Origin: Escherichia coli
Lineage (GTDB): Bacteria; Pseudomonadota; Gammaproteobacteria; Enterobacterales; Enterobacteriaceae
Length of the DNA stretch: 64,000 nucleotides
Strand: one strand, 5' to 3'
Assembly (NCBI RefSeq): GCF_003018235.1
Contig: NZ_CP027437.1
Below the pieces are notes generated by a model. That model was not told the origin of the DNA. It did not search any database and saw only the letters and a program-made list of their open reading frames with translations. A program made the translations under genes and the position numbers. Below, in pieces: positions 36,534-52,337 of the stretch (positions are counted from its first letter, which is position 1; every line of letters begins with the position of its first letter).

Positions 36534-36610
36534 GGCTACGTAGCTCAGTTGGTTAGAGCACATCACTCATAATGATGGGGTCACAGGTTCGAATCCCGTC
36601 GTAGCCACCA
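36534..36610 (+). tRNA. metT: tRNA-Met (elongator, anticodon CAU)
   Basis: 77-nt GGCTACGTAGCTCAGTTGGTTAGAGCACATCACTCATAATGATGGGGTCACAGGTTCGAATCCCGTCGTAGCCACCA with encoded CCA. Confidence 0.95.
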
Positions 36611-36620
36611 TCTTTTTTTT

Positions 36621-36705
36621 GCGGGAGTGGCGAAATTGGTAGACGCACCAGATTTAGGTTCTGGCGCCGCAAGGTGTGCGAGTTCAAGTCTCGCCTCCCG
36701 CACCA
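36621..36705 (+). tRNA. leuW: tRNA-Leu (anticodon UAG), class II with long variable arm
   Basis: 85-nt GCGGGAGTGGCGAAATTGGTAGACGCACCAGATTTAGGTTCTGG...CGCACCA. Confidence 0.95.
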
Positions 36706-36728
36706 TTCACCAGAAAGCGTTGTACGGA

Positions 36729-36803
36729 TGGGGTATCGCCAAGCGGTAAGGCACCGGTTTTTGATACCGGCATTCCCTGGTTCGAATCCAGGTACCCCAG
36801 CCA
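36729..36803 (+). tRNA. glnU: tRNA-Gln (anticodon UUG)
   Basis: 75-nt TGGGGTATCGCCAAGCGGTAAGGCACCGGTTTTTGATACCGG...CCAGCCA. Confidence 0.95.
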
Positions 36804-36837
36804 TCTTCTTCGAGTAAGCGGTTCACCGCCCGGTTAT

Positions 36838-36912
36838 TGGGGTATCGCCAAGCGGTAAGGCACCGGTTTTTGATACCGGCATTCCCTGGTTCGAATCCAG
36901 GTACCCCAGCCA
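36838..36912 (+). tRNA. glnW: tRNA-Gln (anticodon UUG), second copy
   Basis: Identical to the glnU sequence. Confidence 0.95.
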
Positions 36913-36927
36913 TCGAAGAAACAATCT

Positions 36928-37004
36928 GGCTACGTAGCTCAGTTGGTTAGAGCACATCACTCATAATGATGGGGTCACAGGTTCGAATCCCGTCGTAGCC
37001 ACCA
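36928..37004 (+). tRNA. metU: tRNA-Met (elongator, anticodon CAU), second copy
   Basis: Identical to the metT sequence. Confidence 0.95.
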
Positions 37005-37052
37005 AATTCTGAATGTGTCGAATATGTTCGGCAAATTCAAAAACCAATTTGT

Positions 37053-37127
37053 TGGGGTATCGCCAAGCGGTAAGGCACCGGATTCTGATTCCGGCATTCC
37101 GAGGTTCGAATCCTCGTACCCCAGCCA
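37053..37127 (+). tRNA. glnV: tRNA-Gln (anticodon CUG)
   Basis: 75-nt TGGGGTATCGCCAAGCGGTAAGGCACCGGATTCTGATTCCGG...CCAGCCA. Confidence 0.95.
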
Positions 37128-37164
37128 ATTTATTCAAGACGCTTACCTTGTAAGTGCACCCAGT

Positions 37165-37239
37165 TGGGGTATCGCCAAGCGGTAAGGCACCGGATTCTGA
37201 TTCCGGCATTCCGAGGTTCGAATCCTCGTACCCCAGCCA
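37165..37239 (+). tRNA. glnX: tRNA-Gln (anticodon CUG), second copy
   Basis: Identical to the glnV sequence. Confidence 0.95.
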
Positions 37240-44326: not shown

Positions 44327-44722
44327 TCCCTTCTTATCGTGCCGGAATACATCCCGTATTTCGGCACGCTCACCGGATGCGGCATCAGTGCGTTATCCGG
44401 ATTACAAAATTCCCCTATCCAACTTTGGCACATCTATTGCTTTGTTATACAAGGCAAAGCTTGAACCAGCATCAGTACAACCCGGTTGCACCACAGCAAT
44501 CCACGGGTAGCACCAAAAGAGTGCATTTTAAGAATTTTGCTTCGGAATGGTGCGGCGCATCTCGCAAAAACAAACAATAAAACAGCAATATCTTTACATT
44601 TAGCCAAACTAAATGTTACCTAACAAGCACAACACTGCACAATAAAGTTGCAGATGATAACAACACAAACACTCACAACGGGTATCCATGCGTTCTTAAC
44701 GCAGAAGATAAAGGAGTTGGAT

Positions 44723-45631
44723 ATGCAATTACGTAAACCTGCCACAGCAATCCTGGCCTTGGCGCTTTCCGCAGGACTGGCACAGGCAGATGACGCCGCC
44801 CCGGCAGCGGGCAGTACGCTGGACAAAATCGCCAAAAACGGTGTGATTGTCGTCGGTCACCGTGAATCTTCAGTACCTTTCTCTTATTACGACAATCAGC
44901 AAAAAGTGGTGGGTTACTCGCAGGATTACTCCAACGCCATTGTTGAAGCAGTGAAAAAGAAACTCAACAAACCGGACTTGCAGGTAAAACTGATTCCGAT
45001 CACCTCACAAAACCGTATTCCACTGCTGCAAAACGGCACTTTCGATTTTGAATGTGGTTCTACCACCAACAACGTCGAACGCCAAAAACAGGCGGCTTTC
45101 TCTGACACTATTTTCGTGGTCGGTACGCGCCTTCTGACCAAAAAGGGCGGCGATATCAAAGATTTTGCCGACCTGAAAGGCAAAGCCGTAGTCGTCACTT
45201 CCGGCACTACCTCTGAAGTTTTGCTCAACAAACTGAATGAAGAGCAAAAAATGAATATGCGAATTATCAGCGCCAAAGATCACGGTGACTCTTTCCGTAC
45301 CCTGGAAAGCGGTCGTGCCGTTGCCTTTATGATGGATGATGCTCTGCTGGCTGGTGAACGTGCGAAAGCGAAGAAACCAGACAACTGGGAAATCGTCGGC
45401 AAGCCGCAGTCTCAGGAAGCCTACGGTTGCATGTTGCGTAAAGACGATCCGCAGTTCAAAAAGCTGATGGATGACACCATCGCGCAGGTGCAGACCTCCG
45501 GTGAAGCGGAAAAATGGTTTGATAAATGGTTCAAAAATCCAATTCCGCCGAAAAACCTGAACATGAATTTCGAACTGTCAGACGAAATGAAAGCACTGTT
45601 CAAAGAACCGAATGACAAGGCACTGAACTAA
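44723..45631 (+). CDS. gltI: GltI, glutamate/aspartate periplasmic binding protein (302 aa)
   Basis: ATG at 44723 after AAGGAG; signal peptide MQLRKPATAILALALSAGLAQA. Confidence 0.95.
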   Translation: MQLRKPATAILALALSAGLAQADDAAPAAGSTLDKIAKNGVIVVGHRESSVPFSYYDNQQKVVGYSQDYSNAIVEAVKKKLNKPDLQVKLIPITSQNRIPLLQNGTFDFECGSTTNNVERQKQAAFSDTIFVVGTRLLTKKGGDIKDFADLKGKAVVVTSGTTSEVLLNKLNEEQKMNMRIISAKDHGDSFRTLESGRAVAFMMDDALLAGERAKAKKPDNWEIVGKPQSQEAYGCMLRKDDPQFKKLMDDTIAQVQTSGEAEKWFDKWFKNPIPPKNLNMNFELSDEMKALFKEPNDKALN

Positions 45632-45788
45632 TTACAAGAACCAGGGGCGGAAATTCCAGCCCTCTCGATTGTTACGTAGCACGGACAGACTATACGCCTG
45701 ATGGTCGTTCCCCATCGGGCCTGAAAACCGCAATACGCTGGGTAACAATCTTCGAGGGTAGCAGTTAACGCTGCTACCCTCTTTTTTC
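45632..45788 (+). ncRNA. sroC: SroC sRNA (processed gltI-gltJ spacer, GcvB sponge)
   Basis: Whole gltI-gltJ intergenic spacer, ending in GAGGGTAGCAG-TTAACG-CTGCTACCCTC hairpin plus TTTTTT (45754-45788). Assigned from recalled K-12 location; 5' end approximate. Confidence 0.55.
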
Positions 45789-45800
45789 TGGAGTAGATTT

Positions 45801-46541: not shown

Positions 46542-47215
46542 TGTACGAGTTTGACTGGAGTTCCATTGTCCCTTCCCTGCCATATCTGCTGGATGGGCTG
46601 GTGATCACCCTGAAAATCACCGTCACGGCAGTGGTGATTGGTATTTTATGGGGCACCATGCTGGCGGTGATGCGCTTATCCAGCTTTGCGCCCGTAGCGT
46701 GGTTTGCCAAAGCCTACGTTAACGTATTCCGCTCGATTCCTTTAGTTATGGTTTTGCTGTGGTTTTACCTGATCGTGCCGGGTTTTCTGCAAAACGTGCT
46801 GGGATTATCGCCAAAAAATGATATCCGTTTAATTTCGGCAATGGTGGCGTTTTCGATGTTTGAAGCGGCCTACTATTCAGAGATTATCCGTGCCGGTATT
46901 CAAAGTATTTCCCGTGGTCAGTCGAGCGCCGCGCTGGCGTTGGGGATGACTCACTGGCAGTCGATGAAACTGATTATTCTGCCGCAGGCGTTCCGCGCGA
47001 TGGTGCCGCTGCTGCTCACTCAGGGCATCGTACTGTTCCAGGATACCTCACTGGTGTATGTGTTATCTCTGGCCGATTTCTTCCGTACCGCTTCAACCAT
47101 TGGTGAGCGTGATGGTACGCAGGTCGAGATGATCCTGTTTGCCGGATTTGTTTATTTCGTTATTAGCCTTAGCGCGTCGTTGTTGGTCAGCTACTTGAAA
47201 AGAAGGACAGCATAA
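46541..47215 (+). CDS. gltK: GltK, glutamate/aspartate ABC permease (224 aa)
   Basis: ABC permease; ATG overlaps the gltJ stop. Confidence 0.95.
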
Positions 47216-47940
47216 TGATTACCCTGAAAAATGTTTCAAAATGGTATGGTCACTTTCAGGTGCTGACCGACTGCTCAACCGAAGTGAAAAAAGGCGAAGT
47301 GGTGGTGGTTTGCGGCCCGTCTGGTTCCGGCAAATCAACGCTGATTAAAACCGTCAACGGCCTCGAACCGGTGCAGCAAGGTGAAATTACCGTCGATGGT
47401 ATCGTGGTTAACGATAAGAAAACCGATCTGGCAAAGCTGCGTTCCCGCGTCGGGATGGTGTTCCAGCATTTCGAGTTGTTCCCCCATTTGTCGATTATCG
47501 AAAACCTGACCCTGGCGCAGGTGAAAGTGCTTAAACGCGATAAAGCGCCCGCTCGTGAAAAAGCATTGAAATTGCTGGAGCGCGTGGGACTTTCCGCACA
47601 TGCCAATAAATTTCCGGCGCAGCTTTCCGGCGGTCAGCAGCAGCGTGTGGCGATCGCTCGCGCATTGTGTATGGATCCTATTGCCATGCTGTTCGACGAA
47701 CCGACATCGGCGCTGGATCCGGAGATGATCAACGAAGTGCTGGACGTGATGGTGGAACTGGCGAACGAAGGAATGACCATGATGGTGGTGACCCACGAAA
47801 TGGGCTTTGCCCGTAAAGTGGCGAATCGGGTGATCTTTATGGATGAGGGTAAAATTGTCGAAGACTCGCCGAAAGATGCGTTCTTCGATGATCCGAAATC
47901 GGACCGCGCAAAAGACTTCCTCGCGAAAATCCTGCATTAA
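47215..47940 (+). CDS. gltL: GltL, glutamate/aspartate ABC ATPase (241 aa)
   Basis: Walker [10 protein letters not shown], signature LSGGQQQR, Walker [11 protein letters not shown]; start overlaps the gltK stop. Confidence 0.95.
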
Positions 47941-48057: not shown

Positions 48058-48993
48058 ATGGCACTGCCAATTCTGTTAGATTGCGACCCAGGTCATGATG
48101 ACGCTATCGCAATAGTTCTCGCCCTCGCCTCACCAGAGCTTGATGTCAAAGCAATTACGTCTTCCGCCGGAAACCAGACACCAGAAAAAACCTTACGCAA
48201 TGTTCTGCGTATGCTGACCTTGCTTAATCGCACCGATATTCCGGTGGCAGGCGGCGCGGTAAAACCGTTAATGCGTGAGTTGATTATCGCGGACAATGTG
48301 CACGGTGAAAGCGGTCTCGACGGCCCGGCATTACCGGAACCGACGTTCGCACCGCAAAACTGTACGGCGGTGGAGCTGATGGCGAAAACGCTGCGTGAAA
48401 GTGAGGAACCTGTCACGATTGTGTCTACCGGACCGCAAACTAACGTTGCCTTGCTGCTCAATAGCCATCCGGAACTGCATAGCAAAATCGCCCGTATCGT
48501 GATTATGGGCGGCGCAATGGGGCTTGGTAACTGGACGCCAGCCGCCGAGTTTAATATTTATGTTGACCCGGAAGCGGCAGAAATTGTTTTCCAGTCAGGG
48601 ATCCCGGTGGTGATGGCCGGTCTGGATGTTACTCATAAAGCGCAAATCCACGTTGAAGACACCGAGCGTTTCCGCGCGATTGGCAACCCTGTTTCAACCA
48701 TTGTTGCCGAACTGCTGGATTTCTTCCTCGAATATCATAAAGACGAAAAATGGGGTTTTGTCGGCGCACCGCTGCATGACCCATGCACCATCGCCTGGCT
48801 GTTGAAACCGGAGTTGTTTACCACTGTTGAGCGCTGGGTTGGCGTGGAAACACAAGGGAAATATACCCAGGGTATGACGGTTGTTGATTATTATTATCTG
48901 ACTGGCAATAAACCGAATGCCACTGTAATGGTCGATGTTGATCGTCAGGGCTTTGTTGATTTACTGGCTGATCGTCTGAAATTTTACGCTTAA
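48058..48993 (+). CDS. rihA: RihA, pyrimidine-specific ribonucleoside hydrolase (311 aa)
   Basis: ATG at 48058 gives [22 protein letters not shown] (nucleoside hydrolase DxDxxxDD motif). Confidence 0.95.
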
Positions 48994-49037
48994 TCACTCG
49001 CCGGATGACATCACGCCATCCGGCACCACTCATTTCA

Positions 49038-49520
49038 TTACGGCTCGAACGGGCGTCTCTGGAACTGGTCATGACCACATTTCGGGCATAGCGTCAGCAC
49101 TTCCGGTGTATAGATCGGGAGATGGAAATGACATTTCTCGCAGACCAGATTACCCAGCCCTACCACTTCTCCGCTGTGATAAACCCCGTGATGATTGAGG
49201 TCCTGGAAAACTTCGCGCCATTCAAGCTGCGTTTTATCGGTGATGTCTGCCAGCTCCTGCCACAAGCTTTCTTTAATCACCCGCATAAAGACGCTGTCAG
49301 ACTCTTCTTTCAGGCTCTCTTCATAGCTCATGGCGAACTCTTCCAGGTCACGTCTGACAGCTCGCGTCAGCTCATCGACTTCGGTTCGCGTTAACTCCCC
49401 TGTTTTTATTACGCGCTCGCGCGCCTGTTCCACCAGTGCGTCGATATCACGTTCGCCATTGCGCAGGCGTTCGCTCAGTGACGCGACCAGTTCACGGTAA
49501 TATTGAGCAACCTTGTTCAT
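49038..49520 (-). CDS. ybeL: YbeL, DUF1451 zinc-ribbon protein (160 aa)
   Basis: C-terminal CxxC...CxxC pair (CEKCHF / CPKCGH); divergent from leuS as in K-12. Confidence 0.8.
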   Translation of the reverse strand: MNKVAQYYRELVASLSERLRNGERDIDALVEQARERVIKTGELTRTEVDELTRAVRRDLEEFAMSYEESLKEESDSVFMRVIKESLWQELADITDKTQLEWREVFQDLNHHGVYHSGEVVGLGNLVCEKCHFHLPIYTPEVLTLCPKCGHDQFQRRPFEP

Positions 49521-49754
49521 CGTTTCATCTCCCGGGTCGTTAACTGACTATAATAATAGACGTTCTTTGTTCCTTGCTTTGCTAATACGCCCACAAACTC
49601 TGTAAATTAATGTATGAATAATCCGGGCATCATTTCAACGTCGAATGCGCGAAAGGCTGTTTTGACGCGGACGTTTGGGCTATGCTATGCGGATCTGAAA
49701 AACCACCTCAACGCTACATTTGTAGCCGTATTGAAAACAGGACCACTGGCTGCC

Positions 49755-52337
49755 ATGCAAGAGCAATACCGCCCGGAAGAGATAGAATCCAAAGTACAGC
49801 TTCATTGGGATGAGAAGCGCACATTTGAAGTAACCGAAGACGAGAGCAAAGAGAAGTATTACTGCCTGTCTATGCTTCCCTATCCTTCTGGTCGACTACA
49901 CATGGGCCACGTACGTAACTACACCATCGGTGACGTGATCGCCCGCTACCAGCGTATGCTGGGCAAAAACGTCCTGCAGCCGATCGGCTGGGACGCGTTT
50001 GGTCTGCCTGCGGAAGGCGCGGCGGTGAAAAACAACACCGCACCGGCACCGTGGACGTACGACAACATCGCGTACATGAAAAACCAGCTCAAAATGCTGG
50101 GCTTTGGTTATGACTGGAGCCGCGAGCTGGCAACCTGTACACCGGAATACTACCGTTGGGAACAGAAATTCTTCACCGAGCTGTATAAAAAAGGCCTGGT
50201 ATATAAGAAGACTTCTGCAGTCAACTGGTGCCCGAACGACCAGACCGTACTGGCGAACGAACAAGTTATCGACGGCTGCTGCTGGCGCTGCGATACCAAA
50301 GTTGAGCGTAAAGAGATCCCGCAATGGTTTATCAAAATCACCGCTTACGCTGACGAGCTGCTCAACGATCTGGATAAACTGGATCACTGGCCAGACACCG
50401 TTAAAACCATGCAGCGTAACTGGATTGGTCGTTCCGAAGGCGTAGAAATCACTTTCAACGTTAACGACTATGACAACACGCTGACCGTTTACACTACCCG
50501 CCCGGACACCTTTATGGGTTGTACCTACCTGGCGGTAGCGGCAGGTCATCCGCTGGCGCAGAAAGCGGCGGAAAATAATCCTGAACTGGCCGCCTTTATT
50601 GACGAATGCCGTAACACCAAAGTTGCCGAAGCTGAAATGGCAACGATGGAGAAAAAAGGCGTCGATACTGGCTTTAAAGCGGTTCACCCATTAACGGGCG
50701 AAGAAATTCCCGTTTGGGCAGCAAACTTCGTATTGATGGAGTACGGCACGGGCGCAGTTATGGCGGTTCCGGGTCACGACCAGCGCGACTACGAGTTTGC
50801 CTCTAAATACGGCCTGAACATCAAACCGGTTATCCTGGCAGCTGACGGCTCTGAGCCAGATCTTTCTCAGCAAGCCCTGACTGAAAAAGGCGTTCTGTTC
50901 AACTCTGGCGAGTTCAACGGTCTTGACCATGAAGCGGCCTTCAACGCTATCGCCGATAAACTGACTGCGATGGGCGTTGGCGAGCGTAAAGTGAACTACC
51001 GCCTGCGCGACTGGGGTGTTTCCCGTCAACGTTACTGGGGCGCGCCGATTCCGATGGTGACGCTGGAAGACGGTACCGTAATGCCGACCCCGGACGACCA
51101 GCTGCCGGTGATCCTGCCGGAAGATGTGGTGATGGACGGTATTACCAGCCCGATTAAAGCAGATCCGGAGTGGGCAAAAACTACGGTTAACGGTATGCCA
51201 GCGCTGCGTGAAACCGACACTTTCGACACCTTTATGGAGTCCTCCTGGTACTATGCGCGCTACACTTGCCCGGAGTACAAAGAAGGTATGCTGGATTCCA
51301 AAGCGGCTAACTACTGGCTGCCGGTGGATATCTACATTGGTGGTATCGAACACGCCATTATGCACCTGCTCTACTTCCGCTTCTTCCACAAACTGATGCG
51401 TGATGCAGGCATGGTGAACTCTGACGAACCAGCGAAACAGTTGCTGTGTCAGGGTATGGTGCTGGCAGATGCCTTCTACTATGTTGGCGAAAACGGCGAA
51501 CGTAACTGGGTTTCCCCGGTTGATGCTATCGTTGAACGTGACGAGAAAGGCCGTATCGTGAAAGCGAAAGATGCGGCAGGCCATGAACTGGTTTATACCG
51601 GCATGAGCAAAATGTCCAAGTCGAAGAACAACGGTATCGACCCGCAGGTGATGGTTGAACGTTACGGCGCGGACACCGTTCGTCTGTTTATGATGTTTGC
51701 TTCTCCGGCTGATATGACTCTCGAATGGCAGGAATCCGGCGTGGAAGGGGCTAACCGCTTCCTGAAACGTGTCTGGAAACTGGTTTACGAGCACACAGCG
51801 AAAGGTGATGTTGCGGCACTGAACGTTGATGCGCTGACTGAAGATCAGAAAGCGCTGCGTCGCGATGTGCATAAAACGATCGCTAAAGTGACCGATGATA
51901 TCGGCCGTCGTCAGACCTTCAACACCGCAATTGCGGCGATTATGGAGCTGATGAACAAACTGGCGAAAGCACCGACCGATGGCGAGCAGGACCGCGCCCT
52001 GATGCAGGAAGCGCTGCTGGCGGTAGTCCGTATGCTTAACCCGTTCACCCCGCACATCTGCTTCACGCTGTGGCAGGAACTGAAAGGCGAAGGCGATATC
52101 GACAACGCACCGTGGCCGGTTGCTGACGAAAAAGCGATGGTGGAAGACTCCACGCTGGTCGTGGTGCAGGTTAACGGTAAAGTCCGTGCAAAAATCACCG
52201 TTCCGGTGGACGCAACGGAAGAACAGGTTCGCGAACGTGCTGGCCAGGAACATCTGGTAGCAAAATATCTTGATGGCGTTACCGTGCGTAAAGTGATTTA
52301 CGTACCCGGTAAACTCCTCAATCTGGTCGTTGGCTAA
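49755..52337 (+). CDS. leuS: Leucyl-tRNA synthetase (860 aa)
   Basis: ATG at 49755 gives [15 protein letters not shown]...; HMGH and KMSKS motifs. The 47-aa ORF-track extension is rejected. Confidence 0.97.

Follow-up and report, generated by a model that had tools for sequence, protein, structure and literature searches.

A compact rihA/ybeL junction in Escherichia coli: an island-free allele with a putative REP remnant in its spacer

The 44 bp that separate the convergent genes rihA and ybeL in the E. coli window (the whole 64-kb stretch of DNA that was analysed) represent the island-free allele of a polymorphic locus, and the core of this spacer would be the remnant of a REP pair (BIME) without GTAG tags. 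With a probability of about 70%, as judged from the sequences compared below, this compact allele is a retained or recirculated ancestral island-free allele and not the product of a recent deletion of the K-12 type. It would descend from a pre-island configuration that is found across the Enterobacteriaceae. The HscC/DjlB/DjlC/Sel1/DUF1266 island of other strains is an alternative, also ancient allele, in which the entire spacer was replaced.

Layout of the junction and states of the locus in E. coli

Genes were taken from the list of open reading frames and confirmed by tblastn with K-12 proteins, and the spacer was read directly from the sequence:

47215-47940, + strand: gltL, upstream flank
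48058-48993, + strand: rihA, pyrimidine-specific ribonucleoside hydrolase (311 aa), stop codon TAA at 48991-48993
48994-49037: convergent intergenic spacer of 44 bp, island-free ("compact") allele
49038-49520, - strand: ybeL, DUF1451 zinc-ribbon protein (160 aa), stop codon at 49038-49040 (complement)
49755-52337, + strand: leuS, flank on the far side of ybeL

RihA of the window is 99.4% identical to K-12 RihA over 311 aa (tblastn, match 48058-48990), YbeL is 100% identical to its K-12 counterpart (match 49520-49041), and both gltK and gltL were found upstream of rihA with the K-12 proteins. The positions of the two stop codons confirm the spacing of 44 bp given in the initial annotation, and the rihA and ybeL calls agree with the RefSeq annotation of NZ_CP062824.1 (O169:H41), a genome that is 100% identical to the window over 1,251 bp of the junction (48400-49650). 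By comparison, the 24 kb from 30000 to 54000 reach at best 99.1% identity among complete genomes, with O166:H15 strains among these relatives, so that the region around the junction looks mosaic.

Further features were noted in the upstream part of the window. The lnt/gltI spacer (44327-44722, about 396 bp) is empty; this spacer is variable, holding IS5 in K-12 (locus L001, 16852-17001) and a gene for a 625-aa Rhomboid-domain protein in several other E. coli assemblies (L094, 15253-17130). The seven-tRNA cluster (Met, Leu, Gln, Gln, Met, Gln, Gln; 36534-37239) and the sRNA sroC at the 3' end of gltI (45627-45789) are intact, as expected.

In K-12 MG1655, the ybeL and rihA stops lie 7,976 bp apart, and the genes in NC_000913 (671000-688000) follow the order leuS, ybeL, ybeQ, ybeR, djlB, ybeT, ybeU, djlC, hscC, rihA and gltL. 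The approximately 8 kb from ybeQ to hscC that the initial annotation had given for K-12 is thus borne out (seven genes in 7,976 bp); a compact junction in K-12, which would have refuted the claim of the initial annotation, is not present. A tblastn search with the seven island proteins against the 64-kb window gave no match, in agreement with the proposed absence of the island. The HscC-DjlB-DjlC specialised Hsp70 system encoded by the K-12 ybeQ-hscC island is an alternative occupant of exactly this rihA/ybeL site, without any copy in the window. HscC has previously been described as sporadic in its distribution, and horizontal transfer has been suspected (PMC8215388).

Compared side by side, the sequences of the window and K-12 align as far as each of the two stop codons, and the DNA between the stops is unrelated. 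The 44-bp spacer has no word of at least 8 nt in common with the 120-bp border zones of the K-12 island, and no trace of the spacer was found at the K-12 island borders. Since the 44 bp share nothing with these borders, they do not reflect a fresh deletion of the K-12 island; at the level of sequence, it is firmly shown that the junction did not arise by simple deletion from a K-12-type island.

The states of the locus were counted in 5,426 complete E. coli genomes:

964 genomes: compact junction (1,251-bp junction query, coverage of at least 80%)
962 genomes: compact junction (116-bp junction-only query)
4,449 genomes: any island DNA
3,663 genomes: at least 80% of the K-12 island (subset of the 4,449)
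13 genomes: third state, a 1.27-kb insert with genes for a DUF6985 protein and for two small hypothetical proteins

As 4,449, 964 and 13 add up to 5,426, the states are mutually exclusive. The compact state accounts for about 18% of complete E. coli genomes (approximately one in six), including UTI89 and APEC O2-211. The initial annotation had proposed a check for hscC and djlBC elsewhere in the genome; no relocated copy was found in compact genomes at megablast sensitivity, and compact genomes among the matches listed, for example UTI89, have one matching place each. The UTI89 junction (NC_007946) has the same 44-bp spacer apart from one substitution, A49025G, which lengthens the stem described below, whereas its gltL-rihA flank is only 96.7% identical to the window, indicating a different strain background.

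Less than 80% of the K-12 island remains in about 786 genomes, so that the island is eroding in several lineages. Most of them carry reduced islands of approximately 5.1 kb, in at least two forms (E. coli GN04171, L005; F11, L006). One form lacks ybeR-djlB and part of ybeQ; the other has kept ybeQ and ybeR, with ybeT-ybeU-djlB missing and djlC frameshifted. The third state is exemplified by E. coli O169:H41 F6326-C1 (NZ_CP024263.1; L003, 2437-3713), where the DUF6985 protein of the 1.27-kb insert comprises 129 aa. Its sequence suggests that the DUF6985 allele was derived from an island-type allele. The DUF6985 and K-12 island alleles have 16 nt next to the ybeL stop in common (GTGCGAAATCAGACTA), which are missing from the compact allele, and a similar hairpin after the rihA stop, which likewise is not common to the compact allele.

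REP character of the spacer palindrome

A perfect 8-bp inverted repeat with an N8 loop had been reported at 48988-49011, spanning the rihA stop. Such a repeat does exist in the spacer, but its coordinates, its loop length and the overlap with the stop codon had to be revised: the arms occupy 49000-49007 and 49017-49024, enclose 9 nt, and begin 6 nt downstream of rihA. The parts of the element, as obtained by an inverted-repeat search and folding, are as follows:

49000-49007: left arm GCCGGATG, the reverse complement of the REP 3' half in outgroup REP pairs
49008-49016: loop ACATCACGC, 9 nt, cut to 5 nt by two more pairs on the - strand
49017-49024: right arm CATCCGGC, which together with the next A equals the REP 3' end ..CGCCATCCGGCA
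48999-49025, - strand: extended hairpin in the sense of the ybeL mRNA, with an 11-bp stem including G-U pairs, a 5-nt loop and a stability of -19.5 kcal/mol

Counted from the other gene, the extended hairpin starts 12 nt past the ybeL stop. The motif GCCGGATG-N(3-20)-CATCCGGC occurs once in 64 kb, compared with 0.00 occurrences expected from 100 shuffles, and the palindrome is accordingly present in single copy within the window. Folding of the 44-nt spacer yielded z = -5.0 for the + strand and z = -4.3 for the - strand. The hairpin itself reaches -14.8 kcal/mol on the + strand (rihA sense), compared with the -19.5 kcal/mol on the - strand, and each of the three spacer alleles within E. coli preserves it or makes it more stable. 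A search of 48500-49700 against Rfam with a permissive E-value matched no family, and scans for promoters and terminators returned nothing relevant.

REPs, BIMEs and their decay are textbook knowledge. An E. coli REP is defined by a length of 35-40 nt, an imperfect stem and a 5' GTAG that is needed by TnpA-REP, and the published sequence GTAGGACGGATAAGGCGTTTACGCCGCATCCG was used for comparison (PMC3479197). The arms GCCGGATG and CATCCGGC (49000-49024) form the GCC(G/T)GAT..../....ATC(C/A)GGC stem-loop typical of REPs, and the 3' half CGCCATCCGGCA matches both the outgroup REPs at the same site and the published REP. More generally, arms of the type GCCGGATG...CGCCATCCGGCA are those of the REPs and BIMEs of E. 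coli, Salmonella and Citrobacter. The location is also that of a REP: the element is extragenic and 3' untranslated, lies in a convergent pair just past both stops (at the distances of 6 and 12 nt given above), and forms a hairpin on both strands. Unlike REPs, it measures only 25 nt (27 nt with the G-U extension), has a perfect 8-bp stem on the + strand without the characteristic bulge, and lacks the 5' tag, as neither GTAG nor CTAC was found in 48994-49037. With GTAG and bulge missing, the RAYT transposase TnpA-REP should fail to recognise the element. The element also consists of one short palindrome, whereas a BIME is a pair of inverted REPs, which supports a remnant and not a member of this class. 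To judge from these features, the palindrome is a short, decayed REP/BIME remnant without GTAG tag and not a functional mobile REP, and its form is what would be left of a REP pair that had lost everything between its two outer arms.

A related element is located in the convergent hscC/djlC spacer of K-12. The palindrome found there (GCCGGATGCGGCGTAAACGCTGCATCCGGCA) has the same arms, is GTAG-less and lies a few nt past a stop codon, like that of the window; it differs in being placed inside the island that is absent here, in its loop of 14 nt and in its flanks. The spacer that contains it is 59 bp long in K-12 (L001, 10665-10723), whereas the corresponding spacer of strain 980-2 comprises 110 bp and harbours a full REP pair (L087, 3896-4005). 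A change between the full-pair form and the collapsed form of the element, by gain or collapse of a REP pair, is visible within E. coli at hscC/djlC, and the comparison of strain 980-2 with K-12 indicates that REP pairs can collapse to palindromes of this type. The K-12 RefSeq record has no repeat annotated at this spacer.

One other way of relating these elements was considered and rejected. The hscC/djlC palindrome could have been the original rihA/ybeL REP, with cargo added on both sides; the hscC/djlC spacer of the Salmonella island, however, is 21 bp long and has no REP, and strain 980-2, the one genome that was a candidate for an intermediate, has a complete island and an expanded REP pair.

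The spacer in related genera and the age of the two alleles

The locus was surveyed with one genome per species, yielding 80 ybeL loci (a set without E. albertii, E. fergusonii and S. bongori) that were mapped with K-12 proteins. Direct adjacency of ybeL and rihA was found in 32 of the 80 loci, while ybeL adjoins gltL in many others. Approximately 18 of the 32 rihA/ybeL spacers contain two or more REP-core arms, 11 of these with GTAG tags. A tagged inverted REP pair (BIME) is present in Citrobacter portucalensis, C. youngae and Citrobacter sp. wls619, with the layout GCCGGATGGCG...TTATCCGGCCTAC - linker - GTAGGCCGGATAAGACG...CGCCATCCGGCA and CTAC/GTAG tags; the spacer of Salmonella enterica subsp. 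arizonae has the same BIME layout with degenerate tags. Single tagged REPs occur in C. braakii, C. gillenii and Citrobacter sp. Res13, and Citrobacter sp. FP75 has a collapsed, tagless palindrome (GCCGGATGGCGATACCATCCGGCA) whose layout is almost identical to that of the window (GCCGGATGACATCACGCCATCCGGCA). In every REP-bearing spacer described (Citrobacter, S. arizonae), the ...CATCCGGCA end faces ybeL at a distance of a few nt from the stop, and the position and orientation of the REP in island-free Pseudocitrobacter match the window as well. Other genera, many of them island-free, have different palindromic repeats, or none, in the rihA/ybeL spacer.

Within the genus, only three other Escherichia representatives have the island, namely E. 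whittamii, Escherichia sp. E1V33 and Escherichia sp. MOD1-EC7003 (L007, L008 and L010). The divergent Escherichia lineage L009 (approximately 94% identity in the rihA flank) carries the compact allele in a 39-bp version. In MOD1-EC7003, an extra 2.5 kb are found between ybeL and ybeQ (L010, 10578-12916), which include a third, distant djlB/djlC-like gene (27-29% aa identity).

Salmonella enterica subsp. enterica (GCA_017806235.1; L088, 7720-17648) has an orthologous island at the same rihA/ybeL site, which indicates that the island itself is old. Its genes are arranged in the order rihA, an extra 412-aa gene, hscC, djlC, DUF1266, djlB-like, DUF1266, ybeQ-like and ybeL; no Pfam family was recorded for the 412-aa gene. 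The HscC proteins of E. coli and Salmonella are 83% identical, with a recognisably conserved hairpin upstream of hscC, whereas the amino acid identity is 46-54% for DjlB/DjlC, 60-63% for YbeR/YbeU and 50% for YbeQ. Set against HscC and the flanks (91-95%), the values of 46-63% point to fast evolution of the co-chaperone and Sel1 genes.

Retention of an ancestral island-free allele is favoured because island-free outgroups are the rule and carry REPs or REP pairs at a matching position and in matching orientation, because the 44 bp are devoid of island border sequence, and because the compact allele is found in the divergent lineage L009 (39 bp) as well as in the form of three spacer alleles in E. 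coli. A further argument is provided by the G+C content of the K-12 island, which is 42-48% over ybeQ-ybeU and thus below the 51-53% of the flanks. The island may nevertheless predate E. coli, in which case the compact allele could be a secondary loss.

Such a loss, which we regard as rather unlikely, would start from an Escherichia ancestor that had the island; the island would then have been deleted in one E. coli lineage or in a few, the new convergent spacer would have been colonised by a REP or REP pair that later decayed, and homologous recombination would have spread the resulting allele. In favour of this course of events, Salmonella enterica, E. whittamii, Escherichia sp. E1V33 and MOD1-EC7003 all have the island in this position, and partial deletions occur, as seen in the two 5.1-kb forms and in the approximately 786 genomes that retain less than 80% of it. 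The flank haplotypes of E. coli are also unsorted by allele class: no differences that follow the allele class were detected in the last 300 nt of rihA and ybeL, so that there is no signature of a long-separated haplotype. As REPs are all alike, the similarity to the spacers of Citrobacter and Salmonella could stem from separate colonisation events instead of shared ancestry. Secondary loss is, however, at odds with the lack of any island border sequence in the 44 bp, with a REP position and orientation as in island-free Citrobacter, S. arizonae and Pseudocitrobacter, and with the compact allele of L009. It also needs two events, a precise deletion followed by REP insertion and decay, whereas retention of the ancestral allele needs none.

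The spacer downstream of ybeL is an insertion hotspot that has received several unrelated cargoes across genera. Apart from the HscC island in Escherichia and Salmonella and the DUF6985 cassette in 13 E. coli genomes, these comprise a 6.8-kb chaperone-usher fimbrial operon (Usher, PapD) in two Citrobacter (L018, L022) and 4-kb TpsA/TpsB pairs for two-partner secretion (TPS domain plus ShlB/POTRA) in Leclercia, Klebsiella oxytoca, K. grimontii and Silvania (L052, L057, L059, L073, L081). REPs or REP pairs are frequent at the empty site, but it is unlikely that they promote insertion at the hotspot. We also consider it improbable that the spacer is an ancient cross-genus hotspot, REP-marked when empty, at which the island polymorphism has persisted or been re-exchanged since before the split of Escherichia and Salmonella. 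If this were true, the rapid divergence of the co-chaperone and Sel1 genes would be as expected of a system driven by conflict (phage or toxin defence) and not of a housekeeping chaperone. No credible match to a defence system was obtained with PADLOC models for any of the seven island proteins or of the three encoded by the 1.3-kb variant; the sole match was that of YbeQ to PtuA (19 bits, E = 1e-4, no passing domain).

Possible roles of the hairpin and meaning of the locus

To go by REPs that have been characterised, the palindrome would most likely serve as a 3' RNA hairpin that protects both the rihA and ybeL transcripts. The remnant would be transcribed at the 3' ends of both convergent mRNAs and act as a REP-type stem-loop against 3'-to-5' exonucleases. 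REPs stabilise mRNA, and a REP located at most 15 nt from a stop codon stalls terminating ribosomes and lowers expression (Liang, Rudd and Deutscher 2015, as summarised in PMC12306157). Because the distances of 6 nt (rihA) and 12 nt (ybeL) both fall inside the 15-nt limit given in that summary, the remnant may also damp translation termination of both genes.

The initial annotation had offered a bidirectional terminator and the integration point of the island as possible roles. Arguments for a bidirectional intrinsic (Rho-independent) terminator of rihA and ybeL are the GC-rich stem directly after the two stop codons of the convergent pair, its stability in either sense (-14.8 and -19.5 kcal/mol) and its conservation across the compact alleles. 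Such a terminator is nevertheless quite improbable: no U-run is found directly 3' of the stem on either strand when the flanks are read directly (the + strand continues with ACCACUCAUUUCAUUA, the - strand with AGUGAUUAAGCG), a scan of 48800-49250 returned 0 terminator-like sites, and the arms are REP sequence and not that of a locus-specific terminator. The missing T-rich tail is the very trait that separates REPs from intrinsic terminators (PMC12306157).

The diversity of cargoes in the hotspot and the frequent REPs or REP pairs at the empty site might bring to mind an attachment or target site, but it is highly improbable that the palindrome served as such for the integration of the HscC island or other cargo. 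In island-bearing genomes, the whole 44 bp are replaced, with no half-palindrome, direct repeats or integrase: the K-12 island borders contain no direct repeats of at least 10 bp (the longest common direct word in the border zones being 9 nt, within the rihA and ybeQ coding sequences), no inverted terminal repeats and neither GCCGGATG nor CATCCGGC, there is no recombinase, integrase or transposase among the seven annotated K-12 island genes, the palindrome lacks the GTAG needed for recognition by TnpA-REP (PMC3479197), and many island-free genera have other repeats or none in the spacer.

For annotation purposes, the palindrome should be labelled as a REP remnant rather than as a terminator or attachment site, and the junction provides a tidy example of the decay of a REP pair at a convergent spacer. 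The rihA/ybeL polymorphism is an ordinary presence/absence variant of an accessory island. A literature search (hscC, ybeL, rihA, phylogroup) retrieved no explicit description of this polymorphism; the compact junction has been visible in the UTI89 genome since its publication. The locus also exemplifies a multi-genus insertion hotspot, and it is of small import for biology at large. For E. coli, it identifies hscC, djlB and djlC as accessory genes, which are missing in about 18% of complete genomes, including that of the uropathogenic strain UTI89, so that the phenotypes of this Hsp70 system in K-12 should not be assumed for strains such as UTI89.
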